From the NCBI GenBank assembly GCA_034005525.1, contig JAVEUP010000021.1:1557-65556 (forward strand): a DNA stretch of 64,000 nucleotides. Direction: 5' to 3'. Both the position numbers and the translations under genes were made by a program. Of the stretch, positions 13,386-51,890 are shown piece by piece. Positions within the stretch are counted from its first letter, which is position 1, and each line of letters starts with the position of its first letter. The stretch is from Thermoguttaceae bacterium. GTDB taxonomy: Bacteria; Planctomycetota; Planctomycetia; Pirellulales; Thermoguttaceae. The notes below the pieces were generated by a model, which was not told the origin of the DNA, did not search any database, and was given only the letters and a program-made list of their open reading frames with translations.

Positions 13386-14552
13386 ATGCCCCGCAAAACG
13401 TGGACGCTCGCCGACCAGCAGCAAGATATCTACGTCGATCAGATCGCCATTGAGCCGGAGAACGTTGGCGGGCAGGCCAGCGGCTACTCGGTTACGAAAC
13501 GGGTACTCAGCGCGGGTGTGCGGCGCGGGGTCGAGGTGGTCGAGGTCAACAACGGCCGCCTCCGTTTCACCGTGGTACCCACCCGCGGTATGGGCATTTG
13601 GCGCGCGTCGCTCGGCCAACTGCAACTCGGGTGGAACTCGCCGGTCAAAGGCCCGGTACACCCGAGCATGGTCCGCCTGAACGACCCGAGCGGGATCGGG
13701 TGGTTGGACGGGTTCGACGAACTCTTGGTGCGTTGCGGCCTCGAGAGCAACGGTGCGCCGGAGTTCAACGACCAGGGGGCTCTCGTCTATGGGTTGCACG
13801 GCAAGATCGCCAACATTCCCGCCCATCAGCTGGAAGTGAGCATCGACGGCGACGAGGGCGAGATTTCCGTTCGCGGCGTGGTCGATGAGGCGCGATTGTT
13901 CGGCAACAACCTCCGGCTCGAGTCCACCATCACCACTCGCGTCGGCGAGGCAAGTTTCACCGTGACCGACGTGGTGAGCAACATCTCGGCGGAAGAGAAC
14001 GACCTGGAGCTGCTCTACCACGTAAACTTCGGGGTGCCGCTGCTGGAGCCGGGCGCGAAGGCCGTCGTGCCGGTGCGGAAACTCGCTCCGCGCGACGTGG
14101 TGGCCAAGGGAAATCTTCCGCAGTGGGACACGTACGGGCCTCCGACCCCGGGGCTGGCCGAGGCGTGCTTCTTCTTCGAGTTGTGCGCCGACGCCGATGG
14201 AAATACCGAGGCTGTGCTGCACAACGAGGCCGGCAGCCAAGGCGTGGCGATGCGGCACAATACGCAACAGTTGCCCTACTTCATCCTGTGGAAGAACATG
14301 CAGGCCCAACAGGACGGATACGTGACCGGGTTGGAGCCGGCAATCAATTTCCCGAACAGGAAATCGTTTGAGAAGCAGCACGGCCGGGTGGCGGAGTTGA
14401 AGCCGGGCGAACAGCGCACCTTCCAGTTGACTCTCGAAGCGCTGCCCGATGAAGCCGCCGTCGCCGCCGCCACCGCACGCGTGGCCCAGTTACAGAACGG
14501 CACAACGCCGCAGATACTCGACCGGCCCGATCCGCAGTGGAGTGCCGGGTAG
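13386..14552 (+). CDS. Aldose-1-epimerase-like (DUF4432 family) protein
   Basis: Start at ATG 13386 with AAGGAGA upstream. The pattern GMGIWRA...GWNSPVKGPVHP...GLHGKIANIPA is typical of DUF4432 / galactose-mutarotase-like proteins. Confidence 0.7.
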   Translation: MPRKTWTLADQQQDIYVDQIAIEPENVGGQASGYSVTKRVLSAGVRRGVEVVEVNNGRLRFTVVPTRGMGIWRASLGQLQLGWNSPVKGPVHPSMVRLNDPSGIGWLDGFDELLVRCGLESNGAPEFNDQGALVYGLHGKIANIPAHQLEVSIDGDEGEISVRGVVDEARLFGNNLRLESTITTRVGEASFTVTDVVSNISAEENDLELLYHVNFGVPLLEPGAKAVVPVRKLAPRDVVAKGNLPQWDTYGPPTPGLAEACFFFELCADADGNTEAVLHNEAGSQGVAMRHNTQQLPYFILWKNMQAQQDGYVTGLEPAINFPNRKSFEKQHGRVAELKPGEQRTFQLTLEALPDEAAVAAATARVAQLQNGTTPQILDRPDPQWSAG

Positions 14553-15312: not shown

Positions 15313-15965
15313 CCGAACCGCTTCTTGAGCTTCGCGACGTGAGTTTCTCCTACGGGCCGGATCGGCCGGTATTGCGCGAGTGCAGTTTGAAAATCTGTGA
15401 GAGCGAGCGCCTCGGCCTGGTCGGCGCCAACGGAAGCGGGAAGACCACGCTGCTGCACCTGGCCGTGGGGCTGCTGCGCCCAGCGTCGGGCGAGGTTGTC
15501 GCGTTCGGCAAGCCACGGTGCCGCGAGGCCGACTTCCACGAGGTCCGCCGCCGTGCCGGGCTGCTGTTCCAAGACACCGACGATCAGCTCTTCTGCCCCA
15601 CCGTGGCCGAGGACGTGGCCTTCGGACCGTTGAATCTCGGCCGGTCGCGCCATGAAGCGCGGCAGATCGTGGCTGAAACACTCGATCGTGTGGGTCTGCC
15701 CGGGTTCGAGCGGCGCATCACCTACCGCCTTTCCGGCGGCGAACGGCGGCTGGTGGCCCTGGCTTCCGTGCTGGCCATGCAACCTGACGTACTGCTGCTC
15801 GACGAACCCACCGCCGGGCTCGACGAAGCTGCGACCGTCCGGCTCATCGGCGTGTTAAGAAGCCTCAAACAAGCCATGCTCGTCGTGTCGCACGACCGCG
15901 CGTTTCGAGAACAGGTCACGGAACGGAGCCTGTTCTTGCGCGAGGGAGGCGTTGAGGGCGTCTAG
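15309..15965 (+). CDS. ABC/ECF transporter ATP-binding protein (CbiO/EcfA family)
   Basis: Walker A GANGSGKTT, signature LSGGERRLVAL, Walker B LLLDEPTAGLD. The start at 15309 is translationally coupled to the T component. Confidence 0.9.
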   Translation: MTEPLLELRDVSFSYGPDRPVLRECSLKICESERLGLVGANGSGKTTLLHLAVGLLRPASGEVVAFGKPRCREADFHEVRRRAGLLFQDTDDQLFCPTVAEDVAFGPLNLGRSRHEARQIVAETLDRVGLPGFERRITYRLSGGERRLVALASVLAMQPDVLLLDEPTAGLDEAATVRLIGVLRSLKQAMLVVSHDRAFREQVTERSLFLREGGVEGV

Positions 15966-31059: not shown

Positions 31060-31388
31060 ACAACGTCCCTTCTTGTCTGTTATCGGCGGTAAAGTTTCGC
31101 CATCTTCAGGCGAACTGCCCTGGCGTCCCCCTGTTGTTGTGCGTAGTCGGAGTCAAAGCTTGCTGGGAGTCACGCAAAGTGGGGTGGGGCGAATCTCGCC
31201 GATCGGCCGCGTTCTCTGCCCCCCGGTTGGAAGCCCGCCGCACCTCCCCTACAATGGCGGCCTGCAAGAAGGGGCCCTGTGCAGGAGCCTATCTCCCGCG
31301 CAGCATTGTAGTAGGCACACGCCGCTGTGCCGTCCCCGAAACGAGAGCAGTCGGTACCCGGAAACGGAAAAGCCAACAAGGTTCCTCC

Positions 31389-34300
31389 ATGCCGGTCGAA
31401 GCCAAACCCCTGTTCCGCCCCGACGTGCTCCGGGCCCGCCTGGCCGGGTTCGCGCTGCCTGCGCACGTCGACGCATTCCGCCCGAAACTGGCGCACTGGG
31501 CCGAACTGCTCGCCTCGGGCAAGGCGAACACGTTCACCGAACAGGAAATCCTGCCCGACTTTCTCAGCGACTACTTCTGCGAACTGCTCGGCTATACCCG
31601 CCCGGCCGACGGCGGCCCGCGCTACACCATCTCGCGCGAGAAGCATGTGCAAGTCGAAGGCGAGTTCGCCGACGCCGTGCTGGGCGACTTCGGCCGCGGG
31701 CCGGAACGGTTCATCGTGGCCCTGGAGGGCAAGGGGCCGCGCGACCCGCTCGACCGGCCCTTTGGCGGACGACGCATGTCGGCCGTCGACCAGGGTTACC
31801 GCTACGCCATCAACCTGCCGTGCGACTGGATTATTGTCACCTCCATCCGGCAAACGCGGCTTTATGGGAAGGGCACCGACCAGCAAACCTACGAGCGGTT
31901 CGACACCGAGGACCTGGCGGCCGACGACGACCTGCTCCGCCGCTTCGTCTTCCTGCTGGGCGCCGAGCGCGTTGTGCCCGAGACGGGCCGCTGCCACTTC
32001 GACGACCTGCGGGCCGAGTCGGAGCAGGTGGGCAAGGACCTTACGAAGGAGTTCTACCTCCGCTACGCCGAGATGCGGCAGGACGCCTTCGCCCGCCTCT
32101 GCCGCGACAATCCCGGCGTGCCCCGCCACGACGTGCTCACCTGCGCCCAGAAGCTGCTCGACCGCGTGCTGTTCTGCGCGTTCTGCGAGGACCGCGGCCT
32201 GCTGCCGGGCGAATCGCTCCGCCGGGCCTACGAGCACCGCGACCCCTACCACCCGCGGCCCATCTGGGACAATTTCCGCGGGCTGTTCGGCGCGGTCAAT
32301 CGGGGCAACGCGGGCTTAGGGATCCACGCCTACAACGGCGGGCTGTTCGCCGACGATCCGGTGCTCGACCAACTGGCGGTGGCCGACGAGGTGTGCGCGT
32401 ACTTCCGCGACCTGGGCGATTTCGACTACCGCCCCGCCCACCAGGCCGCCGCCTACGCCCCGGCCGCCGGCAACCGCAGCCTGATCGACGTCGACATCCT
32501 CGGCCATATTTTCGAGCAGTCGATCACCGACCTGGAGAACCTGCGCAACGAGCTGGACGCGCTGGCCGAGCCGGCCGTTGCCGAGAAACGCAAGACGCGG
32601 CGCAAGAAGGAGGGCGCGTTCTACACGCCTGCGTTCATTACCCGGTACATCATCGAGCAGGCACTCGGCGGCGTGCTGAGCGAACGCCTGGAGCGGCTTC
32701 GTCAGTCGCACGAGCAGGAAGCCCGCGGCTCGGCGCGCAAGGCGCTTGCCGATCCGCGGGTGTACACGCTGGACGCGCTGAAGAAACCGGAGCGTGCGGC
32801 CCTGGTGCGATTCTGGGAGGCGTGGCAGGACGAGTTGGCCTCGGTACGGCTGTTGGACCCGGCCTGCGGCAGCGGCGCGTTCCTCATCGAGGCGTTCGAC
32901 CAGTTGCACGCCGCCTACCAGGCGTCGAACGACCGGCTGGCCGAGTTGCGCGGGCATCGGACCCTGTTCGACCTGGACAAGCGGATCCTGGAGAACAACC
33001 TGTACGGCGTGGACCTCAACGAAGAGGCCATCGAAATCTGCCGCCTGAGCCTATGGATCAAGACGGCCCAGCGCGGCAAGGTGCTCACCAGCCTCGACCA
33101 CACCATCCGCGTCGGCAACAGCATCGTCGCCGACCCGGCGCATTGCGAGAAGGCGTTCGACTGGCAGGCCGAGTTCCCCGAGGTGTTCGCGCAGGGCGGG
33201 TTCGACGTCGTGGTGGCCAACCCGCCCTACGTGCGGCAGGAACTGCTCAGCCCGATCAAGCCGTACCTGGAAGGCGCCTACCGTGCGTACCACGGCATGG
33301 CCGACCTGTACGTCTACTTCTACGAGTTGGGCCTCAGGCTGCTGAAGCCGGGCGGGCTGCTCTCCTACGTCGTGACCAACAAGTGGATGAAGGCCGGCTA
33401 CGCCGAGCCGTTGCGCCGGTTCTTCCAGGACGCGGCGTGGATCGAGTCGGTCGTGGACTTCGGACACGCGAAGCAGATCTTCGAGCAGGCCGACGTCTTT
33501 CCCTCCATTCTCGTCGCCCGCCGCCCCACCACCGCCCCTAAGCCCGCCACCGCCCTGCTTTGCGCCATCCCCCGCGAGCAACTGCGCGTCGACGATTTGA
33601 GCCGGCAAGTGCAAGAGGAAAGCGCGGCGTTGCCTGTCTCGCAACTTGCGGTTGAAGGTTGGCAGCTTGAACCGGCCGGGGTTAGCAAACTGCTGGAGAA
33701 GATCAAGGCACAAGGGGTGCCGCTGGTGGAGTATGTGGGGGTGGCACCGCTGACAGGTATCAAGACTGCTTTCAATGATGCCTACCTGATCGACACCTCC
33801 ACTAAAGAGGCATTGGTGAAAGCCGACCCGAACTCTGTGCCGCTGATACGCCCGTATGTTCGCGGAGCCGATATTGGCCGATGGGCTCTGAACTGGGACC
33901 AACTCTGGATGATAACGATGAAATCAAGCGGCGATCATCCTTGGCCGTGGGCAGAGGCAGGTGAAAGCGCTGAAGCCGTTTTTCGGGACACATATCCCGC
34001 GCTGCACGCACATTTCGCCAAATACGAAGCACCATTGAAGAAGCGGCTGGATCAAGGCCGGTACTGGTGGGAGTTGCGTTCATGCGCCTACTGGGACAAG
34101 TTCTCGGCGCCAAAGCTGTACTACCAGCTTATCCAGTTCCATCCATGCTATGCGGTCGATAGGAATGGCACGTTTGGAAACAACAAGACGGCGTTTGTAC
34201 CGGCAAATGATCTCTATCTGTTGGGTGTTCTCAACTCGCCTCTGATGTGGTGGCACAATTGGCGCCATTTGCCGCACATGAAGGACGAAGCCCTTGCGCC

Positions 34301-34754
34301 AAACCCAACCGTTCTGAACTCCATTCCGATAGCCGAAGCGACTGACGGTACTCGCGCCGAAGTCGAGAAGGCGGTAAGCCGCCTGGTTGAGGTTGCTCAG
34401 CTTCACCAATCGACCCGCCGCCAGCTTCTCGACTGGCTCCGGGTGGAGCACGAGGTGGCCAAGCCGAGTTTGAAGCTCCGCTCGCTGTTGGACCTCGACA
34501 GCGACGCCTTCGTAGCGGAAGTCCGCAAAGTGCGCGGGCGGAAGCGGCCCCTCTCCTCCGCCGCGCTGGCCAACCTCCGCGACGAGCACACTCGCTCCAT
34601 CGCCCCCATGCACACCCTCGCCACCGAAGCCCTCCGCCTCGAACACCGCCTCAGCGACCTCGTCAACGCCGCCTACCACCTCACCACCGCCGAAACCGCG
34701 CTGCTCTGGCAAACGGCGCCGCCGAGAATGCCGATTGGCGGGCCGGGGGAATAA
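31389..34754 (+). CDS. Type IIG restriction enzyme / N6-adenine DNA methyltransferase (Eco57I-family methylase with a TaqI-like C-terminal specificity domain and an N-terminal PD-(D/E)xK-like module)
   Basis: Start at the internal ATG at 31389. Motif I LLDPACGSGAFLIEAF and motif IV VVANPPYVRQE. N-terminal FADAVLG...FIVALEGKG (D...E-x-K). TRD-like block VEYVGVAPLTGIKTAFNDAYLID. Confidence 0.85.
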   Translation: MPVEAKPLFRPDVLRARLAGFALPAHVDAFRPKLAHWAELLASGKANTFTEQEILPDFLSDYFCELLGYTRPADGGPRYTISREKHVQVEGEFADAVLGDFGRGPERFIVALEGKGPRDPLDRPFGGRRMSAVDQGYRYAINLPCDWIIVTSIRQTRLYGKGTDQQTYERFDTEDLAADDDLLRRFVFLLGAERVVPETGRCHFDDLRAESEQVGKDLTKEFYLRYAEMRQDAFARLCRDNPGVPRHDVLTCAQKLLDRVLFCAFCEDRGLLPGESLRRAYEHRDPYHPRPIWDNFRGLFGAVNRGNAGLGIHAYNGGLFADDPVLDQLAVADEVCAYFRDLGDFDYRPAHQAAAYAPAAGNRSLIDVDILGHIFEQSITDLENLRNELDALAEPAVAEKRKTRRKKEGAFYTPAFITRYIIEQALGGVLSERLERLRQSHEQEARGSARKALADPRVYTLDALKKPERAALVRFWEAWQDELASVRLLDPACGSGAFLIEAFDQLHAAYQASNDRLAELRGHRTLFDLDKRILENNLYGVDLNEEAIEICRLSLWIKTAQRGKVLTSLDHTIRVGNSIVADPAHCEKAFDWQAEFPEVFAQGGFDVVVANPPYVRQELLSPIKPYLEGAYRAYHGMADLYVYFYELGLRLLKPGGLLSYVVTNKWMKAGYAEPLRRFFQDAAWIESVVDFGHAKQIFEQADVFPSILVARRPTTAPKPATALLCAIPREQLRVDDLSRQVQEESAALPVSQLAVEGWQLEPAGVSKLLEKIKAQGVPLVEYVGVAPLTGIKTAFNDAYLIDTSTKEALVKADPNSVPLIRPYVRGADIGRWALNWDQLWMITMKSSGDHPWPWAEAGESAEAVFRDTYPALHAHFAKYEAPLKKRLDQGRYWWELRSCAYWDKFSAPKLYYQLIQFHPCYAVDRNGTFGNNKTAFVPANDLYLLGVLNSPLMWWHNWRHLPHMKDEALAPNPTVLNSIPIAEATDGTRAEVEKAVSRLVEVAQLHQSTRRQLLDWLRVEHEVAKPSLKLRSLLDLDSDAFVAEVRKVRGRKRPLSSAALANLRDEHTRSIAPMHTLATEALRLEHRLSDLVNAAYHLTTAETALLWQTAPPRMPIGGPGE

Positions 34755-34801
34755 CGCCCCACGCTTTGCCACCCGGCCGGCCTTGCGCGGCGTTATCTTT
34801 T
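34751..34801. terminator. Possible bidirectional terminator hairpin between the converging methyltransferase and higA genes
   Basis: ATAACGCC (34751-34758) pairs with GGCGTTAT (34789-34796) around an inner CCGGCCGG-containing loop. CTTTT follows on the plus strand. Confidence 0.35.
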
Positions 34802-34863
34802 CGTGCCGAAGGCAGAGCCCCAAATCAGCCCGCGGTGGACCGGGGTATAGCAGACACATCGTC

Positions 34864-35190
34864 TTACCGAAGTGTGCCAACCTCCGGATCTTTCGCCGTC
34901 AGCTCCACGGTGACTTTCTTCTGCAGGGCCTCTGCAATACGGCTGAGCATTGACAGAGAATGGCCGTCATAGTCGGAATCTTCAAGACGGCTGATGACCG
35001 ATTGTGTTGTGCCCACAAGCTCGGCTAGCTGCTTTTGGGTTAGCCCGGCGTCGGTCCTCGCAGAGTGAATTAGGCCGGCGATCTCAGCATTCACGCGCTC
35101 GGCTTCGACGGACGCCTTTCTCTCCGGATCGTTCTTTACGTATCTGTTGCGGAGGATTTCCGCTGCGTTGCAGGTTGTTCTCTTAGCCAT
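34864..35190 (-). CDS. higA: HigA-type antitoxin (XRE-family HTH)
   Basis: Start at the internal ATG at 35190. HTH GLTQKQLAELVGTTQSVISRLE. 8-bp overlap with the upstream toxin gene. Confidence 0.85.
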   Translation of the reverse strand: MAKRTTCNAAEILRNRYVKNDPERKASVEAERVNAEIAGLIHSARTDAGLTQKQLAELVGTTQSVISRLEDSDYDGHSLSMLSRIAEALQKKVTVELTAKDPEVGTLR

Positions 35191-35557
35191 CGGTTTGCTC
35201 CTTGTAGGTGTGCCGCTCAGGGTCGTGCTTGAACTGCATGCTGCGTGATAGGGCCAAGTCGATGTCCCGATCCGGCACAATGTTCTCCTTGGTCAGTCCA
35301 TGCGACACCACCGCCATCTGATTGTGAAAAAAGTAGAGCATTCGGTAGTTGACGCTTCGGTGCCGCACCCGTAGTTCATAGATGCCATCCCGCAGGTAGT
35401 CTGCCGCTGGCCGGCGAAGTTCGTGGCCATGCTCCTCCAGCCGTTCGATCCACACCAGGCACTTGTCTTGGACCTTGCGTTCCTGATTGTCCAGCCAATC
35501 CAGCAACGGGGCACTTCCATTGTCATCAGCGAAAAACACTACGTCTGTCTTGGGCAT
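35183..35557 (-). CDS. higB: HigB-type toxin (RelE/ParE superfamily, phage Gp49-like)
   Basis: 124 aa. The pattern FFADDNGSAPLLDWL...LRDGIYELRVRHRSVNYRMLYFFH is typical of Gp49/HigB-like toxins. Toxin-first order. Confidence 0.85.
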   Translation of the reverse strand: MPKTDVVFFADDNGSAPLLDWLDNQERKVQDKCLVWIERLEEHGHELRRPAADYLRDGIYELRVRHRSVNYRMLYFFHNQMAVVSHGLTKENIVPDRDIDLALSRSMQFKHDPERHTYKEQTDG

Positions 35558-35710
35558 CGTTGCCTCCCCAATTTCCGGGCGGCCTGTATGCAGGCGCTTG
35601 CCAAATGTCTCCGGCCGACTGGGCCGAATCGCAGAACTTGCCAGCCAAAACGGTCGGTTCCCAAAGCATCGCTACCTCCACTAGCTACGTGCGTTTTGAT
35701 CCCACCACAA

Positions 35711-35754
35711 GTATCGCATATTTGCGATACGAAGTCAACGCAATTTTGCGATAT
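35711..35754. promoter_or_regulatory. Candidate operator upstream of higBA: palindrome GTATCGCA-tatt-TGCGATAC plus a third TTGCGATA half-site
   Basis: The 8-bp arms are perfect at 35711-35730. TTGCGATA repeats at 35746-35753. The site is about 155-195 nt upstream of the higB ATG. Confidence 0.35.
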
Positions 35755-36056
35755 TCCAGGTCGGTGAGTAGCCGGACGCGGGAGCGTACCTAAATGACTG
35801 GTAGGAAAGGACTTATGGAGGAACGCACGCGGGTTAAGGGGCCTTCCCGTGCCAGAATGTGCTGGACTTCTTGGTCGCACTGCCCGATTAGGCACGGCGA
35901 GCCAGCAGCAAGTGCCCCCGTATGGGTGATTATGCTCTCCATCGCTGGCAGGAGTTCGCCGGTTGACCCTGTCCACACGCTCAGCCACGAAATGGCACGC
36001 CCGGCGCTGATCCAGTACGGTCAGTCGCTAGGATCAATCAAGGCCCTTTCCGAATG

Positions 36057-36240
36057 CCGCGACGAGCACATCCGCTCCATCGCCCCCATGCGTCCCCTAG
36101 CCGCCGAAGCCCTTCGCCTCGAACACCGCCTCAGCGACCTGGTCAACGCCGCCTACCACCTCACTCCCGACGAAATCGCGCTGCTCTGGCAAACCGCCCC
36201 GCCGAGGATGCCGATCGGCGGGCCAAGCGACGGTAAATAA
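36057..36240 (+). pseudogene. Detached second copy of the last ~60 codons of the type IIG methyltransferase gene
   Basis: 36057-36224 aligns colinearly with 34577-34744. I hand-counted about 17 mismatches in 168 nt. It encodes RDEHIRSIAPMRPLAAEALRLEHRLSDLVNAAYHLTPDEIALLWQTAPPRMPIGGP. No methyltransferase body lies upstream. Confidence 0.7.
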
Positions 36241-36430
36241 TTACGTGGGTCTTAGCTGGGCAACGGTCGTCCTTGCAATCCCGTCCTCGCAATCTCCAGC
36301 TTGTGCCAAGATGTGAGCCAGGGTACACTGGTAATGGTGGACATTTGCGAGCGGAACGTCGGCACATCCGTTGGCGGAGCCGGCATGTTGCTGCTCTCGC
36401 ACTTGCCAGTTGTACAAGAACGGGGCCTGT

Positions 36431-36667
36431 ATGAATCGCATCGTAGTCAAATCGAGGATCGGCAGCGACGGCATCCTGCAATTGGCGTTGCCCGTCGGAC
36501 CGGCCGATGCTGACCGAGAGGTTCAGGTTTCGGTCGAACCGGTCGCCCCGGCGGCCCTGTCGCCCGACGAGTGGCGCCGCCGCGTTTTCGAGACGGCTGG
36601 AAAGTGGGAGGGACCGCTGGAGCGGCCGGAGCAGGGGGAATACGAACAGCGGGAGCCGCTAGGGTGA
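36431..36667 (+). CDS. Small antitoxin-like protein (VapB position)
   Basis: 78 aa from ATG 36431 (MNRIVVKSRIGSDGILQLALP...). Its stop overlaps the GTG of a PIN-like reading frame (GTGA). Confidence 0.6.
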   Translation: MNRIVVKSRIGSDGILQLALPVGPADADREVQVSVEPVAPAALSPDEWRRRVFETAGKWEGPLERPEQGEYEQREPLG

Positions 36668-36762
36668 GCCACCTGCTGGACACCAACTCTTTCATCGACC
36701 ACCTTCACAACACGTCCGAGTTCAGCCGCATACCGGGCTTGCTCCTTGAGGACTGGCAGTAG
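36664..36762 (+). pseudogene. Truncated vapC (PIN) remnant, only about 32 codons
   Basis: VSHLLDTNSFIDHLHN... is a canonical PIN N-terminus but ends after 32 aa, 55 nt before the 3-prime end of mcrC. Confidence 0.5.
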
Positions 36763-36817
36763 ATTTGCCAGCCCGACTGGAGCAGCTTGCGTCACGCAAC
36801 CGTGGATGGCTCCCGCG

Positions 36818-38206
36818 TCATGCTCGCCGTTGAACTGTTGCAGCAATCCATTCGCGGAGGCGGTCGGCTGCTGCCCGCTTCACGTCTTTCAAAGATTGAC
36901 GCCGTTGGAGCAAGTTGATCGCAAGTACGGCCACACGGACGTGACCATCGCATGGCGGAACTGCAAAGTGGAAGTTGTCCAGCCATTCGAAAGGCTGTCC
37001 GTCCATGTTCCAGAAGGGAACCACGAAGAAGCCACACGAGGCGCCATAGAGTCGCATGTAAACATAAAGCTGATTCCAGTCAGCAGAACGAATGCAAACT
37101 CGCAGAACCTCTTCGCCACTGGCAAGTTGTGAGGTCATCGCCCTTTCCAAAACATCCTTATACTTCGCATCCCCTACAGCGTACGATTCCTGTGACTTCC
37201 ACAAGACAATGTCTGGCTCATGCACCTGGTGCTGTTGCCCGCTAAGGAACGGCCTGGAATTGCAAAATGCGGCTTGCCAGGTCGCATCGGGCAACGCGGC
37301 CTGCGCAATCACTTCGGCAAATCGTTCAAAGGCACGATTGGCATCGAGAGCCAGCGAAGGGGCTTGGCCGCCTGGGGACGGCAAATCGCTGCCTCGCAGC
37401 AGCAGGCGTGCCCAAGCCATGGCCCGCCGATAGACGCGCGACGTCCGTTCGAGTCGCGCCTTCCGAAGGTCTGCAGACGTAATGGACACTTCTTCGACAC
37501 CGCTGAACCACGGTAAGAGCTTTTGGAACGGTTCCCACACCGACGCACCCACTCCAGGGTCAAGGGCTGCGGCAACGCGCTGGAGTCGGCGGGCGGCAGC
37601 CCAAAGAATGCGATTATCCCAGTTGTCAACCGTGAACTCTTCCCAACGGCATGGAAGCACATGCGGCTTGCCGCGAAGCGCCCCCCGCACATAGCCTGCA
37701 AGGTGAAGCCGGCCCCGAATGTGGCTGCGCAGCTCCGCTTCCTCCTTGCGGTAGTACGCGCGAAAGTCCCGACGGCACAGTTCTTGAAGCAACTGCGCAT
37801 AGTGCCTGGCAAGAAACAGGAGGAACGGATGTGGGCCTAGTTGTCCTTCCCACCCTGGGACATCCTCCGGTGGCGTTTCGCCTTCACCCAGTGCAAGCAG
37901 TTCTAAAAAACGCAAGAGACCAAGGCGCGGCTCTTGTCGGCAGCCCTTTGGGGCGATCAGCAAGAGGTGCATTCCGTCCTCATCGCCGAATGGCAACAGC
38001 CCAACGTAATGAGATGCGCCAATATGCAGGCGGTCCTCATCGAAAGAGCGCACCAACCATTGGGCTGTCAAATACGGCTCGAGGTGTTCCTTGCGATGAA
38101 ATAGGAGGGCTGCCTCGTCCCGGTCGGCACAGGTGTCATACTCGAAAAGTGTCACCTCGCGAGGGAGGACAACAGCGGGCAAATTTGCGGTACCTTCAGC
38201 ACTCAT
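36818..38206 (-). CDS. mcrC: McrC (nuclease subunit of a McrBC type IV restriction system)
   Basis: Start at ATG 38206, overlapping the mcrB stop (ATGA). PD-(D/E)xK block HEPDIVLW...YAVGDAKYKD. Confidence 0.85.
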   Translation of the reverse strand: MSAEGTANLPAVVLPREVTLFEYDTCADRDEAALLFHRKEHLEPYLTAQWLVRSFDEDRLHIGASHYVGLLPFGDEDGMHLLLIAPKGCRQEPRLGLLRFLELLALGEGETPPEDVPGWEGQLGPHPFLLFLARHYAQLLQELCRRDFRAYYRKEEAELRSHIRGRLHLAGYVRGALRGKPHVLPCRWEEFTVDNWDNRILWAAARRLQRVAAALDPGVGASVWEPFQKLLPWFSGVEEVSITSADLRKARLERTSRVYRRAMAWARLLLRGSDLPSPGGQAPSLALDANRAFERFAEVIAQAALPDATWQAAFCNSRPFLSGQQHQVHEPDIVLWKSQESYAVGDAKYKDVLERAMTSQLASGEEVLRVCIRSADWNQLYVYMRLYGASCGFFVVPFWNMDGQPFEWLDNFHFAVPPCDGHVRVAVLAINLLQRRQSLKDVKRAAADRLREWIAATVQRRA

Positions 38207-39429
38207 GGCTGTGGCAGAACCTGATCCAACGGGTGTAACCATTTACCGAGGGTATCTGCTCCCAGATTCAAGAGCTGGGCATATTCGCGAAGCAGCGGCT
38301 GCACCTGATGTTCCCATTTCATCCGGACCTGTTGCTGGGCAACCTCGCCCGACGCATCCGCGTTCGGAAGAAAATAGGAGTGACCGATCCCCATTTCCGC
38401 CTCAGCATTGCGGTCGTTGCCCGTGTTGAGCATGGCATTGAGCTGCTCCATGAGTTTCACCAAACGCTCGCCGTAGCTTTCTTCTTGTGCGCCGTGCCAG
38501 ACCTTCCGAATGACCTCCGAATCCGGTCCAACGTGACAAAGGCCAAAACGTCGACGGATGGCGACATCGATATGACCAATGGAACGATCCGCAGAGTTCA
38601 TCGTTGCGATGATATACAGGTTGCCGGGTACGATCAAGTCCGCGCGTTCCTCGCACACGAACGGCAGCGTCACCGGTTGATTACGATACTCGAGCGCATA
38701 AACCAGTTCGCCAAGCAGTTTTGGCAGGTTGCCACGGTTGATCTCATCAATCACCAACACGACAGGCTGGGCGTGCGACCCCGTGGAGCGCTGTTCGGCC
38801 CGGCGGCAAAGCTGCAGGAAGATTCCCCCTTTCACCTGAAACGCGAGTGTGCCGTCCTTTACTATCGGTTCGATGCCGCCCACAAACTGTTCATACTCGT
38901 ACGCCGGATGGAAGACGACAAGCTCAAATCGCTTGTCCTCGCGGAAAGGTTGAAGTTGCTTGTCGATCTCTCCTGTTGGGGCCGACTCGGCAGGTTCCTT
39001 CCCGCTGAGGATGGCGAGTGCAGTTCGCTTAGCTTCGCGGGTCTTACCCGTGCCGGGCGGACCGTAGAGAATCACTTGGCGAAATTGGTGCAATAGGTCT
39101 TTCATGGTCGGCCACTTTGTCGGTTCTATTCCTGTAGGTGGTTCTGGTGGTCGTTCGGGATCAAGGTTTGCATCCTTGAGGCAAATTTGGCAGTAGGCAG
39201 TGGGTGTCCTCCCGTGTTCATGCAGCCCATTAAGCAACTCATCCAAGGTCGAACCCCAAATCCTCTTGCGTGGCTCACTGTCTGCGCCCTTTTTGTAGGG
39301 CTGTCCTCCGAACTTGCATGATGTGCGGTGTACCTTCCCGTGTCCATCGATCCAAACGAAGCCTGCTGGCTTCGCCCTAATCCACTCCAAGTATCGGCGT
39401 TCCTCCCCAATCTCGAACCTCTCAATCAT
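38203..39429 (-). CDS. mcrB: McrB-like AAA+ GTPase with a non-canonical ~125-aa N-terminal domain
   Basis: Walker A ILYGPPGTGKT, Walker B LVIDEINRGN, and IIATMNSADRS...AIRRRF. GGGAGAA RBS. Confidence 0.9.
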   Translation of the reverse strand: MIERFEIGEERRYLEWIRAKPAGFVWIDGHGKVHRTSCKFGGQPYKKGADSEPRKRIWGSTLDELLNGLHEHGRTPTAYCQICLKDANLDPERPPEPPTGIEPTKWPTMKDLLHQFRQVILYGPPGTGKTREAKRTALAILSGKEPAESAPTGEIDKQLQPFREDKRFELVVFHPAYEYEQFVGGIEPIVKDGTLAFQVKGGIFLQLCRRAEQRSTGSHAQPVVLVIDEINRGNLPKLLGELVYALEYRNQPVTLPFVCEERADLIVPGNLYIIATMNSADRSIGHIDVAIRRRFGLCHVGPDSEVIRKVWHGAQEESYGERLVKLMEQLNAMLNTGNDRNAEAEMGIGHSYFLPNADASGEVAQQQVRMKWEHQVQPLLREYAQLLNLGADTLGKWLHPLDQVLPQP

Positions 39430-39760
39430 CTACTGTTCTCCCGCCCGGAGGGTTTCCAGCGATAAGGAATCGCATAGCTAGAGGACCCAGGTGCAATCTG
39501 TGGAGTGGCTCCGTGCTCTGGATGGCCGATACTCGCCACCATCCCCATTGCGCGACGCATCTCTCTTGTATCGACGCTTTCCGTGTCTCATCGCCGAGGA
39601 CGCAGTCGCTCCTGTCGGCATCCGACCTCAAGTATGCCGCGGCCGGGGGAAATGGTCAACCCCTCCGTGCAAAGCGACGAATTCAAGAAAATTAGCGCTG
39701 GCGAGTCTCCCCCCCCACCCAAAAACCGTCAGAAGAGGGGGCTTTTCGACGAAAATCGGC

Positions 39761-39789
39761 TTGCTTTATACGCTATTTGCATATATATT
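39761..39789 (+). promoter_or_regulatory. Candidate promoter TTGCTT-N17-TATATT abutting the nucleotidyltransferase gene (possibly a leaderless mRNA)
   Basis: AT-rich patch. -35 at 39761-39766 and -10 at 39784-39789. The ATG at 39798 lies only 8 nt after the -10 element. Confidence 0.3.
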
Positions 39790-39797
39790 TACGTTAT

Positions 39798-40394
39798 ATG
39801 CGTACAAAACCCCTGATCGCCGCGCTGTTCCCGAAGACCCGGCGGTCGGTGCTGGCCGCAACGGTAATGCACCCGGACCGATGGTGGTTCCATGCCGATT
39901 TGGCGCGGCATCTCGGTGTTCCGCCGTCGAGCCTTCAGCGGGAATTGCAGTCGCTGGTCGAAGCGGGCATTCTGATTCGTCGCGAAGAGGGGAAGCACGT
40001 GTACTTCAAGCCCGATCCGAACTGCCCGGTCCTGCCCGAACTCCAGGGGATCATGACGAAGACGCTCGGCCTTGTCGATGTGTTGCGGGCGGCGATGGCG
40101 CCGTTTCAGGACGCGATCCGGGTGGCCTTCGTTTACGGCTCCATCGCACGGTCGGAGGAATTGTCGGAAAGCGACGTGGACCTGATGGTCATCGGCAGCG
40201 CCCAACTGGCCGCCCTGTCGCCCGAGTTTTCGAAGGCCGAGGCAACACTCGGCCGCGAGGTGAACCCGACGGTCTTCTCGCCGGAAGAGTTCTCCAGAAA
40301 GCTGCAAGAGGGGCATCACTTCGTGACATCGGTGGTGCGAGCCGAGAAGCTGTTCGTTACCGGAGGCCCGGATGACTTGGCACGACTTGCTTAG
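39798..40394 (+). CDS. Winged-HTH plus minimal nucleotidyltransferase (MNT) fusion protein
   Basis: wHTH LARHLGVPPSSLQRELQSLVEAGIL, followed by the NTase signature FVYGSIARSEELSESDVDLMVIG. Confidence 0.8.
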   Translation: MRTKPLIAALFPKTRRSVLAATVMHPDRWWFHADLARHLGVPPSSLQRELQSLVEAGILIRREEGKHVYFKPDPNCPVLPELQGIMTKTLGLVDVLRAAMAPFQDAIRVAFVYGSIARSEELSESDVDLMVIGSAQLAALSPEFSKAEATLGREVNPTVFSPEEFSRKLQEGHHFVTSVVRAEKLFVTGGPDDLARLA

Positions 40395-40815
40395 GACGCG
40401 GCGCATCCAGCGCCACAGCACGAGCAAACAGGAACTGGACGCCTTGCGTGCCGTGGTGGAACGCGACTTGAAGGACGCTTCTGTTCCGGAACTGTCGGAA
40501 GACCGGCGGTTTGCGATGGCGTACAACGGTGTGCTGCAACTGGCCACGATGGCGGTGGCCTGTGCCGGCTACCGGGTGACCGCCAAGCAGGGCCATCACG
40601 AGAATACTTTCGTCGCGCTGGAGTTGGCCGCAGGCCCGCAAGTGGCCCCCCTCGCAAAGTACTTCAACACTTGCCGGCGGAAGCGGAACATGGTCGACTA
40701 CAACGTAGCCAGCGTCGTTACGGAAACCGAACTGATGGAACTGTTGGAGAAGGCCGCCGAGTTCAAAACGTTCATCGAGGATTGGATCGCGACGAACCAC
40801 CTGCATCTCACGTAA
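40372..40815 (+). CDS. HEPN-like helical partner of the MNT protein (tentative)
   Basis: 147 aa, overlapping the MNT gene by 23 nt. All-helical composition, with CRRKRNMVDY where HEPN proteins carry R-x4-6-H. Confidence 0.5.
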   Translation: MTWHDLLRTRRIQRHSTSKQELDALRAVVERDLKDASVPELSEDRRFAMAYNGVLQLATMAVACAGYRVTAKQGHHENTFVALELAAGPQVAPLAKYFNTCRRKRNMVDYNVASVVTETELMELLEKAAEFKTFIEDWIATNHLHLT

Positions 40816-40828
40816 CGCTACGGCCACT

Positions 40829-41071
40829 TCATTCGCCGGCCGCCTCCGCGATGATTTCGTCGGCGTTATACTGAAATGGGGTGGTGCCGAGCCGGCTTGC
40901 GGCTTGTAGGAATTCGGCGCGCGAAAGGTCGGCGATCTCCGCCGCGCGGGCCTGCGAAACAAGCCGCAACTCGTACCATTTCACGGCGGCGGCAAGCCGC
41001 AGGTCGGCCGCGAAGCCGGATGGATCCTTTCGCATCGCCGCCAATGCACCCTCGGGCATTTCGATTGTCAT
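40829..41071 (-). CDS. UPF0175 family antitoxin-like protein, orphan
   Basis: MTIEMPEGALAAMRKDPSGFAADLRLAAAVKWYELRLVSQARAAEIADLSRAEFLQ... is typical of UPF0175. No DUF3368/PIN partner follows it. Confidence 0.65.
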   Translation of the reverse strand: MTIEMPEGALAAMRKDPSGFAADLRLAAAVKWYELRLVSQARAAEIADLSRAEFLQAASRLGTTPFQYNADEIIAEAAGE

Positions 41072-41203
41072 CCGCACCATGAGCGTGTCTCCCGCAGCAG
41101 CCGCGATCAATCCGGTTCTTGGCTTTCGCAGCCTTCCCTCCAATTATAGCAGATAGGACGGGCGGAGGTAAGGCGGCCGGCAGGCCACCCGGCGCTAGCC
41201 GAT

Positions 41204-41303
41204 CAGCTTCTCGACTGGCTCCGGGTGGAGCACGACGTAGCGAAGCCGACGCTGAAGCTCAAAACCCTCCTGAACCTCGACTGCGATGCCTTTGTGGCGG
41301 AAG
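41204..41303 (+). pseudogene. Third partial copy of the methyltransferase 3-prime region (segment upstream of the one copied at 36057)
   Basis: 41204-41235 is identical over 32 nt to 34422-34453. Looser similarity continues to 41303 / 34521 ([19 protein letters not shown]...DAFVAE). Confidence 0.6.
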
Positions 41304-41331
41304 AGCGGAAACAACCGATTGGCGTTTGCCC

Positions 41332-41478
41332 TTCGCCGGATTGCGGGGAATTGAACTCTTGCGGCTGCGAGTGAAGGACGTCGACTTCCAACGCCGGCAG
41401 TTGACGGTGCGGGACGCCAAAGGGCAGAAGGACCGGGCCACGATCCTGGGGGAGCCTTCGTCGCACGAAGCCCTTCTT
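41332..41478 (+). pseudogene. Internal fragment of a tyrosine recombinase (integron-integrase/XerD-like)
   Basis: [43 protein letters not shown] matches the conserved GLR..E.L.L...D.D.....I.V..GKG.KDR block. No N-terminal or catalytic C-terminal part is present. Confidence 0.55.
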
Positions 41479-41502: not shown

Positions 41503-44500
41503 TCATACCCCCACCAAAACCCCCAACGTCAAGAATGCCAGGCGGGCCGAGACCTTGCCAGGATCGAGCCGGAACTGGCGGGCGACGGCGCGGCGGTAGG
41601 CGTCGAGCTGGGGGCGATAGTGCTCCACGCGGGCGGCCAGGGCGGCGGCGTCGCCGGGGGGAAGCTGGTCGGTCTTGAAGTCGAGCACGTCGGCGCCGAC
41701 CACCTGCGGGCCGTCGTATAATACGGTCAGCCGGTCGATCGAACCGCTCAGGATCGCCCCGTCTTCGAGCAAGGCGAACGGGCGTTCTCGCCATACGCGC
41801 CAGTGCGGCGAGCCCAGCCCCGGGCCGGCGCAAGCGGCGCAGGTGCCGTCGCCAGGCTGCTTGTAGAACGCACGGCTCAGCGCGGCAGTGATTGTGGGCC
41901 GGTCCACCGCGGCGTGGAACTCGCGCTTCAACGCCGCGACGGCCGCGGCGTCGAGCGTCGAACGCTGAGCCAGTTGGTCGAGCCGGGCGTCGTCGGGCAG
42001 CCCGTCGTCGAGCCATTCGATCTGCTCGAACCAGGCGTGCATGAGGCTGCCGCGCTGGAGCGCCGGGCCGGCTTCCACGGTCAGGCTCGTAGAAAGCTTC
42101 ACCCGATGCCCTCCCTCCAAGCCCGAGGGACTGACCCGCTCCAGGCCGCGCCGCGGCTGCGAAGCCGGGGCGGCCAACTCGATGGCCAGCGGTTCGGCCG
42201 CCGCGGCTGTTGCTGCCGCCCGCCCGCGCACGATGCCCGCGGCCAGCGCCCGGGCGTACCAGTCGGCATCGCCGTGCTCGAAGGCGGCCGTTTCCGGCTC
42301 CACGCGGGCACCGTTGACCAGCGCGGCGCGGAGCACGCCCGTGGCGGTGCCGGGTAGCTTCTTCTCCTTCTCCGACGACGGCGCCACAACGCACCATAGC
42401 GAGTGGATCGGCCGCGTCAGCGCGACGTACAGAATGCAGAGCGACTCCTCGACTTTCACGCGGTCGTCGGCGTCGAACGCGTCGGCCAGCCGCTTCGGCA
42501 GCAGGCAGCGGAAGCCCTTCGGCACATAGCGGCACACCTGGTCGATCGGCTCGGCCGGCCCCGCGCGGCCGACGACCAGCGCGGACGTTTGCGGGCCGAG
42601 TTGGAAGTCGAGTTCCGGCAGTACAACGATGTCGAACTGGAGCCCCTTGACCTGGTGATAGTTCATCACGCGCACCGGCGCGGAAGTGGGCGACTCGACC
42701 CGCCGCTGCTCGACCATGACCACGAACTGGTCGGTGCGCGTGGTCGCGGCCGGCTCGTAGCCGTAGGCCAGTTCGACAAGCTGCATCAGCCGGCTGAGGT
42801 CGCGGGCATCACAATGCCCGGCAAGCTGCTCCGCCCAACCGTAAAGGGTCGGACCATAACCGGCGTCCATCAGCCGGTGCCGAATGTCGCCGGCCAGCCG
42901 CAAGGCTGCCGCGCCGTCGGCGTGATCGGTGAAGCCAATCGCCGCACCCAAGGGCGAACGGGCCACATGGAAGCGGGCGACCGTATCGCCCGGATGATCC
43001 ACCAGCCGCAGCAACGACAGCATGAGCTGCACGGCGGGCGAGTCGGTCAGCGGGTTGCCCCCCTCCTCGCTTGCGTCGACTTCCGCCTGGCGCAAGCGGT
43101 AGATCAGCCGGGCCACGGAGGCGTTCTTCCTCACCAACACGCCAATGGAGCATCCGGGCGATTCTTCGTGCAGTTGCTTCACCAGCCTTGCTGCGTAGTC
43201 GAGCGTCACGTCATTCTGCACCTGGCCCTCGGCCGCGCGCGGGGCTCCGGCCACGCGGCAGTAACCGGGCAGACCTTTGCGGGCGGTCGAGTGCTCCGTG
43301 AACCGGCCGCCCCAGGCGGCAGCCGCTTCCGGGTGGTTCTGCACGGCGACATTGCTTGCGATTCCCCGGAATACCCGGTTCACCACGTCGATCACCACGG
43401 GCGACGAGCGATAGCTGCAAGTCAGTTCGCCGGCGGTGAGTTCGGGCAGCTCGTTGTTAAGCGTATCGAAGATCTCGGCCACGCCGCCTCGCCAGCCGTA
43501 AATGGCCTGCTTCACGTCGCCCACGCAGAAGAACGACCGCCGCGGGCCGCCCCGCACGCTTTCTCGTGCGAACGGGCGCAGCACGCGCCATTGCTGCGGC
43601 GAGGTGTCCTGGAACTCGTCCAGCAGCAGGTGCGACACCGGCGCGTCGAGCCGGTACACCACCTCGTCGAGCCGCCCGGCCAGGTCGGACTGGGCCAGCA
43701 TGCGCGTGACGTCGTCGAACCGGACCGCCTGGCGGGCGAGCTTCAGCCGCCGATACGCATCGTCGAAATGCTTTAGCAGCCGGCGCGTGCCCTCCGTTTG
43801 GTTCGCAATCCGCCCGAGCACCTCGGCCTTCGCGTGGTCCATTAGCGGCCGGTACCGGGCAATGAGTTCGTCGGGGATCGGCTTGTTGTAGTAGGTCAGC
43901 GTGGAATCGAGGATTTTGGCGGCCAGGCCGCCCGCGAGGAAACCGTCCCAGTCTTCCGTGCCTGCGCGGTCGAGGTCCTTGTCGCGCGCGCCCGCCATCC
44001 GCTTGTTGCTGCTGAGGTCGAGGGCCGCGGCCGCGTCGATGGCCGCCTGGAGTTCGGCCGGCGGCAGCGGCTTGTAGCGGGGCAGGGCCTGCCATGCAGT
44101 GTCCGGCGCATCGACGTAGGCCCCGTACAGGCCGGAAACCAATCCGGCAATCTCCTCGGCCACCGACCGGGCCGCGGCGCCCTTGTGCAGCAGGTGCATC
44201 AGCTCCAGGGCGTCGGCGGTCGACTCCTGCGCGACGATCCGGCGGACCGCCTCGGCCTGCATGGCGGCGTCGTCCATCTCGTCGACGATTTGCCAGCCGG
44301 GCGGCAGCCCGAGTTCCAGCCCGAAGCTTTGGGCGATTTGCACGAAGAAGCTGTCGAGCGTACCCACGCGCAGCCGGTGGAGGCGGCGGACCATGGCGGC
44401 CACCAGCCGCAGGCAGTTCTCGCGGTTGAGCTTGCCGCCTTCGACGTGCTTGTTGAGTTCGGCTAGCTTCTTCGCGTCGAGTGCGGCGGTCGCCAGCCGG

Positions 44501-44673
44501 GTGAGCACTCGGTTGAGGATTTCGCCCGCCGCCTTGCGCGTGAACGTGCTGGCCAGAATGGCGTCGAGCGGCTCGCCAGCCGCCGCCAGCCCAATGAACC
44601 GGTTGCTAAGCTGGAACGTCTTGCCCGTACCGGCCGACGCGCGAATGACCAGGTTGGAGAAGCGATGGCTCAT
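41503..44673 (-). CDS. addA: AddA/RecB-type UvrD-family helicase with a C-terminal PD-(D/E)xK nuclease
   Basis: Walker [12 protein letters not shown], UvrD-like helicase blocks, and C-terminal GSIDRL...[10 protein letters not shown]...QLDAY. Confidence 0.85.
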
Positions 44674-51800: not shown

Positions 51801-51890
51801 CCCTCGAAAGGGCAAACCGGTTGAAAGGCCGGGGCGCAAAGCCAAGGGCCGGCGGCGCTAGCCGGCGGAAGCCTGGCTGCCGAAAGGGTG
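51801..51890 (+). promoter_or_regulatory. c-di-GMP-I (GEMM-I)-like riboswitch aptamer in the flp pilin leader
   Basis: Ordered blocks GGGCAAACC, a hairpin CCGGUU-GAAA-GGCCGG, GGCGCAAAGCC, a stem GCCAAGG...CCUGGC and UGCCGAAAG. These match the GEMM-I core as I recall it. Not verified with a covariance model. Confidence 0.6.

Follow-up and report, generated by a model that had tools for sequence, protein, structure and literature searches.

The question raised by this locus is why the end of one gene should be found three times in a single stretch of DNA. The stretch, called the window below, is 64 kb of contig JAVEUP010000021.1 from a Thermoguttaceae bacterium, and the gene is an intact type IIG restriction-methyltransferase gene. 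Parts of its 3' end recur twice downstream, as fragments which we call stubs, and genes of defence and toxin-antitoxin (TA) type, here called cargo, lie between the copies. The original prediction, made from the sequence alone, held that successive elements had integrated into the gene end and restored it each time with the help of an integrase that has since decayed, or, alternatively, that the fragments are remnants of former allelic variants of the gene or of its target-recognition domain (TRD). Both readings can hold at once: the stubs are what is left of other alleles, and insertions at the gene end account for their presence. They would be ends of former alleles of the type IIG gene, pushed downstream by such insertions, and the explanation towards which we cautiously lean is a displacement of the 3' end anchored in homology, as proposed for the rhs genes.

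The gene and the copies of its end

The 1111-aa product gives Pfam matches to Eco57I (2.4e-45), N6_Mtase and MmeI_Mtase, with weak ones to MmeI_hel and TaqI_C, and a PADLOC match to REase_MTase_IIG (6e-130). Judged by these domains it is a single-chain type IIG enzyme with an N-terminal nuclease region (the nuclease motif was recognized by eye only), a gamma-class N6-adenine methyltransferase domain and a C-terminal TRD. The family is very large, with more than 6000 homologues, and Planctomycetota and Verrucomicrobiota supply most of them; over full length the best 120 database clusters show 63-80% identity, and these come mostly from Planctomycetota. In the layout of the family protein a strongly conserved N-terminal and methyltransferase part is followed by a mosaic TRD and then by a conserved C-terminal block of ~113 residues (~340 nucleotides, nt), which runs from the family-wide motif LLDWLRVEH to TAPPRMP. 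The TRD is mosaic or unalignable even between otherwise close relatives and has a G+C content of 0.56, against 0.68 for the remaining gene and 0.69 for the terminal block, which suggests that specificity has been swapped via recombination inside the family. Nucleotide homology among family members starts abruptly 35-45 nt before the ATG (window 31375-31419, and the loci L001, L002, L017, L044 and L074; L numbers denote retrieved loci), and the upstream flanks are unrelated between relatives even at 91-93% gene identity. Since the flanks are unrelated, the gene occupies different genomic contexts, and the whole methyltransferase gene seems to move as one unit. Between alleles which differ in TRD and in neighbours the conserved block is the only homology.

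The window was analyzed by repeat finding and by blastn of the gene end against its whole length. The intact gene ends at 34754 as predicted (stop codon TAA, 34752-34754), and it is followed by the two partial copies that had been foreseen, all three copies in direct orientation (Table 1); no further copy of the block in the 64 kb had an E-value better than 0.1. Copy 2 is aligned without gaps (36057-36224 to 34577-34744) with 89.9% identity and an E-value of 2e-61, in agreement with the ~90% of the original prediction, and it has its own tail and stop codon (TAA, 36238-36240). Its left edge is sharp with no homology beyond, and tblastn with 40 full-length family proteins found no other methyltransferase pieces ahead of copies 2 or 3, so the claim that no gene body precedes copy 2 holds as well. 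The third fragment had been placed at 41204-41303, copying 34422-34521; the match extends to 41311 (34422-34529 in the gene, E 2e-23), its initial 32 nt are identical as stated, and the similarity possibly continues, weakly, some 20-27 nt further left. This copy is nearer to the allele in L001 (89.8%) than to the resident gene (80.6%).

Copy 3 corresponds to the first third of the block and copy 2 to its last half, and the two do not overlap. This complementarity is coincidental. That they are halves of a single split copy is ruled out by L056, in which the equivalent pieces overlap (block nt 102-324 and 6-257), and it is contradicted also by the synonymous divergence (dS), which is 0.29 for B1/B2 and 0.70 for A1/A3 (A and B being the block parts found in copies 3 and 2, respectively). 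The identical run of 32 nt at copy 3 can also be dismissed as a crossover signature; the segment is nearly invariant among alleles generally, and 29 nt of it are common to L001 and the window. An 18-nt inverted repeat (41185-41228), which folds as a hairpin, spans the left edge of copy 3, and the conserved sequence coding for LDWLRV forms its right arm. The longest identical runs between the direct repeats of the window are 26 and 32 nt, and a deletion of the cargo through these repeats would be plausible. Copy 2 sits in a chimeric open reading frame (ORF) of 148 aa (35794-36240) whose first ~80 residues have essentially no homologues. This ORF is a piece of a chimeric pseudogene and no gene, and the same applies to the 49-aa ORF at 41225-41374.

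The differences between the copies tell where the stubs come from. When stubs were compared with the resident end (seven pairs), the ratio of nonsynonymous to synonymous divergence (dN/dS) was 0.09-0.36, with 0.21 for B1/B2 and 0.18 for A1/A3. The mismatches are of all kinds and mostly synonymous, and the C-terminal tail and the downstream flank differ from copy to copy. Because dN/dS is ~0.2, the differences arose while both members of each pair were parts of working genes; on this ground the stubs come from other functional alleles, and not from a local duplication followed by decay.

Recurrence at the 3' end of the gene in relatives

We retrieved 80 loci from genomes of species representatives and another 80 from metagenomes, with at most 10 kb of flank each, from a family which totals thousands; the block, the gene end of the locus itself and full-length proteins served as queries. 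The gene end is complete and followed by no less than 1 kb of sequence in ~120 loci, and in 132 loci at least 1 kb precedes the gene. In 13 of the ~120 loci, the window included (the others are L001, L020, L037, L056, L067, L078, L079, L102, L124, L134, L149 and L150), one to several partial block copies lie 0.7-6.5 kb downstream of the gene. All copies read in the same direction as the gene, with no convincing case of inversion, and not one of the 132 loci has a copy upstream. No locus carries TRD or methyltransferase-domain sequence attached to a stub; the prediction of allelic remnants thus stands for the gene end and fails for the TRD. The sole stray fragment from elsewhere in the gene is found in L108 (14528-14635; residues 563-598, 69% identity), where it lies at a distance of 2.8 kb on the downstream side. 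Among ~160 loci there was no case of two intact family genes within 10 kb. Since the copies are direct, downstream and derived from the 3' end only, the process is tied to the 3' end of the gene.

The closest full-length relative, L001, has ~83% nucleotide identity to the window gene. Here the intact gene leads directly into an AriA/GajA-like ATPase gene and a gene for a 234-aa partner, behind which the last ~90 nt of the block remain as a decayed stub. This stub is followed by ~80 nt (15367-15446) homologous to window 34755-34846 (blastn 85% over 48 nt, E 3e-9; nhmmer E 2e-6), i.e., the stub still sits on the ~95-nt flank which in the window follows the gene itself. The two-gene cargo thus came with a replacement gene end, and the original end and its native flank were moved 2.5 kb downstream. 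The displaced flank is the strongest single evidence for insertion with restoration, and together with the 13 loci it upholds the view of the gene end as a site of recurrent insertion. The flank as such (34755-34850) was considered as a family-wide site and rejected; it is common to the window and L001 alone.

The order in L056 closely mirrors that of the window: the gene, an ORF6N gene, an internally damaged stub (block nt 102-324), a ParE-type TA pair and another stub (block nt 6-257). In the middle of the first of these stubs, at 14206-14249, the sequence is replaced by a short tandem-like motif (GAATGCGGAGTGCTGAGTGCGGAATGCGGAGTG...). Some family genes are themselves broken, in L079, L078 and in L150 (10001-16700), where only residues 1-697 are left, followed by 3.3 kb of defence cargo and two block copies. 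In L001 (9275-12766) and L169 frameshifts, which may be errors of assembly, split the gene.

The left edges of the stubs in these loci lie from ~57 to ~330 nt before the stop. A wider sample was obtained by searching the chimeric ORF 35794-36240 against 1.8 billion representative proteins, which gave 795 matches. Among the best 150, which were examined, most are short ORFs, and ~90 join an unrelated leader to a fragment of the block, with block edges distributed continuously from profile position 30 to 97. One of these short ORFs (L168) is a true stub beside a DUF433/DUF5615 pair, and another (L169) is a frameshifted intact gene and no stub; some short "hypothetical proteins" in the databases thus share the stub origin. 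A fixed crossover core is not apparent in this material, as the edges spread over more than 200 nt, and it should be noted that old, diverged events blur the resolution.

The cargo of the relatives is mostly defence or TA genes. It includes ParE-type TA pairs (L056 and L124), the candidate systems PDC-M24A/B (L037) and PDC-S60 (L020), the AriA/GajA-like ATPase (L001), PIN_8, DUF4268 and an AbiU2-type HEPN protein (L150), a DACNV-domain protein (L134) and an IS200-like transposase (L149). The latter was the sole transposase among the cargo proteins scanned, and no member of the tyrosine or serine recombinase families was found among them. In L102 the cargo is made up of genes that look like ordinary neighbours (for a cation-efflux protein, a DtxR-type repressor and an OprB porin), and such ordinary chromosomal cargo fits capture of a donor's neighbourhood. 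Loci have in common only fragments of the ParE-type TA region (L056/L124) and 83 nt (L124/L134), which is too little common cargo to show that cargo and stub travel together.

The original prediction had also pointed to a comparison of strains. It yielded one second sample, the only other one with this higB, which is 100% identical to the window over 34708-36486 with the same arrangement; no strain differing in presence or absence of the segments was found. The near-identical methyltransferase contigs L044 and L074 end mid-gene, and relatives of the addA gene to the right have no flanks in common with the window beyond addA itself or one upstream gene.

Neighbouring genes and the integron-integrase remnant

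The features of the region are collected in Table 1. Their predicted placement was correct for higBA, between copies 1 and 2, and for mcrBC, MNT-HEPN and UPF0175, between copies 2 and 3; the ORF which had been called vapB showed no family match in a scan of the domain library. The cargo of the window has a G+C content of 0.575-0.59, compared to 0.68-0.69 for the methyltransferase gene and addA, and looks foreign. The higA gene has been called as 108 aa in the 100% identical contig from another sample. The predicted operator region of higBA contains the perfect palindrome GTATCGCA-TAT-TTGCGATAC and a sigma-70-like site on the minus strand (35738-35710). Downstream of copy 2 the antitoxin-like ORF is intact, and the vapC remnant behind it (36664-36762, plus strand) is reduced to 32 codons in which only the N-terminal LLDTN and the C-terminal IPGLLLEDW are left. 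The ORF list has no toxin ORF adjoining the UPF0175 gene, and this orphan may be seen as a further sign of erosion of the island. No tRNA or tmRNA is found in the window, which disposes of these as insertion targets. The sole Rfam match in the window is a c-di-GMP-I-GGC riboswitch aptamer at 51802-51885 (plus strand; 61.7 bits, E 4e-12, above the Rfam gathering score); the region with the copies has none.

Table 1. Coordinates of the gene, its displaced copies and the surrounding features in the window.
Feature	Position	Strand	Basis
Type IIG (Eco57I/MmeI-like) restriction-methyltransferase gene, intact, 1111 aa	31419-34754	+	Pfam, PADLOC
TRD part, variable, low G+C	33601-34400	+	G+C, alignment to relatives
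Conserved C-terminal block, copy 1 (A1, 34422-34529; B1, 34577-34744), joined to gene	34416-34754	+	Family alignment
Native 3' flank of methyltransferase unit	34755-34850	+	Homology to L001 15367-15446
higA antitoxin (HTH), cargo 1	34864-35190	-	Pfam HTH_3/HTH_31
higB toxin (Gp49/DUF891 family), cargo 1	35183-35557	-	Pfam Gp49 7e-17
higBA predicted promoter/operator region, palindromes	35701-35764	-	Inverted repeat; sigma-70-like site
Copy 2 (B2), displaced 3'-terminal stub with own tail and stop	36057-36240	+	blastn
Putative antitoxin ORF ("vapB") and internally deleted vapC (PIN) remnant	36431-36762	+	Weak VapC match, E 0.034 (remnant)
mcrC	36818-38242	-	Pfam McrBC 1e-29
mcrB-like AAA_5 GTPase/ATPase gene	38203-39429	-	Pfam AAA_5 3e-13
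HTH-nucleotidyltransferase (MNT-like) and HEPN pair	39777-40815	+	Pfam Polbeta/NTP_transf_2 with MarR-type HTH; HEPN_SAV_6107
UPF0175 antitoxin-like gene	40829-41143	-	Pfam UPF0175 5.5e-18
18-nt inverted repeat across left edge of copy 3	41185-41202 and 41211-41228 (arms)		83% complementary, 8-nt spacer
Copy 3 (A3), 5' part of block, 3' side truncated	41204-41311	+	blastn
Internal remnant of integron-type tyrosine recombinase gene, ~40-50 codons	41335-41484	+	NCBIfam TIGR02249
AddA/RecB-like helicase-nuclease gene (addA), right border of variable region	41503-44673	-	NCBIfam RecB-like/AddA

The recombinase piece behind copy 3 was correctly recognized by the original prediction. It matches positions 128-167 of the 315 positions of TIGR02249 at 41335-41454 (possibly to ~41484) with an E-value of 2.7e-11, begins ~24 nt beyond copy 3 in a different frame, and ends ~20 nt or less from the stop of the convergent addA gene. 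All 14 database relatives retrieved for it are short intI fragments. In ~160 other loci tblastn found no integron-integrase fragment within 10 kb of the gene, barring one weak match at the edge of L041. The only other strong intI match is L082, a locus retrieved for its own intI fragment, among whose called genes there is no gene of the methyltransferase family. On that planctomycete chromosome (L082 5800-10600) an 88-aa intI fragment has small TA-like genes (DUF2442/DUF4160) beside it on the opposite strand, and the place looks like a decayed integron.

As for the window, those 40 positions of the TIGR02249 profile were all that was found of an intI gene; an intact intI with an adjacent attI was not present, and a crude scan of our own for attC-like sites (R''/R' and L''/L') found 0 in the 64 kb where 0.2 were expected. 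An integron cassette array seems improbable in view of this crude scan and of the lack of intI-like sequence at other methyltransferase loci. A relative of addA with 93% nucleotide identity (L166) departs from the window 5 nt after the addA stop, its contig ending 93 nt later. Because L166 departs right there, the integrase remnant would seem to lie in a variable spot and not in a conserved integrase position; it looks incidental.

Models for the displaced ends and known systems

The model which we favour, with some reserve, places the anchor for recombination in the nucleotide-conserved block of ~340 nt between the variable TRD and unrelated downstream DNA. Donor DNA would bring part of the block together with whatever lay downstream of the donor gene, and it would recombine with the resident block by ordinary homologous recombination, most likely in a single crossover with a DNA circle; a double crossover in which a stub already present serves as the right-hand arm would lead to the same outcome. 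The gene would keep a complete, hybrid end, and the donor's downstream genes would land directly behind it. The resident end, from the left edge of the donor fragment to the old stop, would become a silent downstream stub. Once formed, a stub and the gene end could loop the cargo out again or act as homology arms for transfer by linear DNA. Applied to the window, A3 would be the oldest stub, truncated by a later deletion and fused to the unrelated intI relic beside addA; then would have come the block ending in B2, with the antitoxin/vapC' pair, mcrBC, MNT-HEPN and UPF0175; and last the end B1 that the gene now has, along with its native flank and higBA.

Several observations do not fit easily into this model of displacement. 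It yields 3'-terminal stubs only, so that A3, L056 14957-15208 and L079 5690-5812, which keep the start of the block without its end, need an extra deletion each. The left edge of A3 at or near the start of the block and the 18-nt inverted repeat across it have no account in the model; the repeat could possibly be the scar of an illegitimate joint. How the first circle of block and cargo came about lacks explanation, as it does for rhs. The available relatives showed no deletion junction, no excised circle and no pre-insertion allele. The set of short ORFs is a mixture of true stubs and frameshifted genes, which, together with clustering, confounds any estimate of stub frequency across the database, and the edges show a mild excess near profile positions 68-77, which may be a hotspot or query bias. 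Finally, a recombinase could conceivably have acted in trans from elsewhere in the genome.

Three rival explanations have to be weighed against homology-anchored displacement. A tyrosine recombinase, decayed or working in trans, might have brought small islands with a replacement 3' end into an attachment (att) site in the gene end. Cargo flanked by direct repeats and a restored gene end are what such site-specific integration would give, a tyrosine-recombinase remnant touches copy 3, some stub edges open with perfect identity (32 nt in A3, 17 nt in L037 and L056), and the edges are perhaps slightly enriched near the profile positions mentioned. Yet the remnant is of integron type and has nothing alike within 10 kb of the gene in ~160 other loci, the identical segment of A3 is nearly invariant anyway (L001 has 29 nt of it), the stub edges are spread over >200 nt, and the cargo proteins scanned gave no match to a tyrosine or serine recombinase, one IS200-like transposase (L149) apart. 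The crude scan showed no attC-like sites and the cargo of L102 is ordinary chromosomal genes, and on balance we regard this integration as improbable. The decayed integrase as inserting agent, which the original prediction proposed, is not supported: like sequences are absent near the gene in the other loci, the cargo proteins scanned include no recombinase, the edges vary and L166 diverges right after addA. A homology anchor is favoured over an integrase because no recombinase was found in the cargo, the breakpoints vary and no attC-like site appeared in the crude scan.

Somewhat less improbable, while still unlikely in our judgement, is a one-step allelic replacement by linear DNA (homology-facilitated illegitimate recombination), which needs no circle: a new allele enters with its downstream genes by means of a homologous anchor in the gene, and the far end is joined illegitimately inside the resident block, so that the remainder of the old end stays behind. 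The origin of the stubs in other functional alleles suits this proposal, and the mosaic TRDs and differing genomic contexts indicate that whole alleles do move; the sharp left edge of B2, with no homology past it, is as expected, and the illegitimate joint could have left the inverted repeat at the edge of A3 as a scar. The difficulty is that there is no reason for an illegitimate joint to fall in the last 340 nt of the resident gene, whereas all stubs but one begin inside the block and none has TRD or methyltransferase-domain sequence. The notion that the stubs are eroded tandem paralogues in a defence island, or local duplications of the gene end, has been largely refuted and deserves very little credence. 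Defence islands often have several restriction-modification genes, and there is much other decay in the region (the deleted vapC, the orphan UPF0175 gene, the intI relic); but none of the ~160 loci has two intact family genes within 10 kb, and random erosion should leave pieces of the remaining 90% of the gene as well, pointing both ways and lying on both sides, which is not observed. Local duplication is contradicted by dN/dS ~0.2 and by the differing tails and flanks.

If homology-anchored displacement is correct, it suggests a simple route by which defence islands can grow beside a restriction gene without a mobility gene, the conserved end being the homology anchor. Neighbours from other genomes would be captured and older cargo pushed outward. 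The direct repeats make the cargo deletable, which may explain the enrichment of TA pairs among what stays. A bolder version, about which we are doubtful, sees the 3' block as a recombinase-free docking site for a pool of block-flanked defence and TA cassettes, shared by Planctomycetota and Verrucomicrobiota and excised and inserted by homologous recombination alone. In that case these restriction genes would be nucleation points for defence islands, and it would be clear why, of all cargo, addictive TA modules are retained most often between unstable direct repeats.

Full-text literature searches of limited coverage found no description of such a pattern at a restriction-modification gene; several known systems resemble it in part. 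Elements such as e14 and phage 21 at icd, and the tandem staphylococcal cassette chromosome (SCC) elements at rlmH/orfX, integrate by replacing the 3' end of a gene. As in the present case, the incoming DNA restores the gene end, the old end stays as a far direct repeat, and successive insertions lead to tandem arrays. Those elements encode a recombinase and have a fixed core, whereas here no recombinase was found in the cargo and the breakpoints vary. Chromosomal integron arrays likewise have small TA-rich modules beside an anchor, and a remnant of intI type is found here; they differ in that the window has no intact intI, no attC-like site in the crude scan and genes in both orientations, and in that the repeated unit is a coding gene end and not attC.

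In the minimal mobile elements of Neisseria and the core defence hotspots (cDHS) of P. aeruginosa, cassettes are swapped by homologous recombination between conserved flanking genes. The likeness lies in the variable defence cargo at a conserved anchor, probably handled by homologous recombination, with no mobility genes of its own. The difference is that here both arms come from the same 340-nt gene end, which leads to duplication of the target, and that the anchor gene is itself mobile. The shufflons of hsdS and type IIG genes and the diversity-generating retroelements also have a partial copy of the end of a specificity gene close downstream, in one case beside recombinase sequence. Unlike in shufflons the present copies are direct, not inverted, and without TRD. 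A diversity-generating retroelement was considered for the window and rejected; no reverse transcriptase domain is found in the region, and the mismatches are not adenine-specific.

The closest parallel is the "C-terminal displacement" of rhs genes, where dissociated 3' fragments form a direct array behind an intact gene (Jackson et al., 2009; PMC2935791). The rhs fragments contain variable lengths of the conserved region and come with incoming DNA of lower G+C, they derive from other conserved alleles and not from rapid local divergence, and homologous recombination via the conserved region with a circular intermediate has been proposed as the mechanism (PMC2935791). Direct downstream 3' fragments, a variable start within the conserved part, cargo of low G+C and an allelic origin are found here also. 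Arrays of orphan cdiA-CT/cdiI and of mafB are of the same kind as the rhs displacement arrays. The present case differs in that the gene is a restriction-methyltransferase gene and not one for a polymorphic toxin, and in that the anchor is the very end of the frame, so that the exchange brings no other functional tip. With a length of only 50-250 nt, the displaced pieces consist of block and a tail of a few codons and never include the TRD, and the gain is independent downstream TA and defence genes, while in rhs it is toxin tips with their immunity genes. The process which we infer here would thus be a variation on that already proposed for the rhs, cdi and maf toxin genes.

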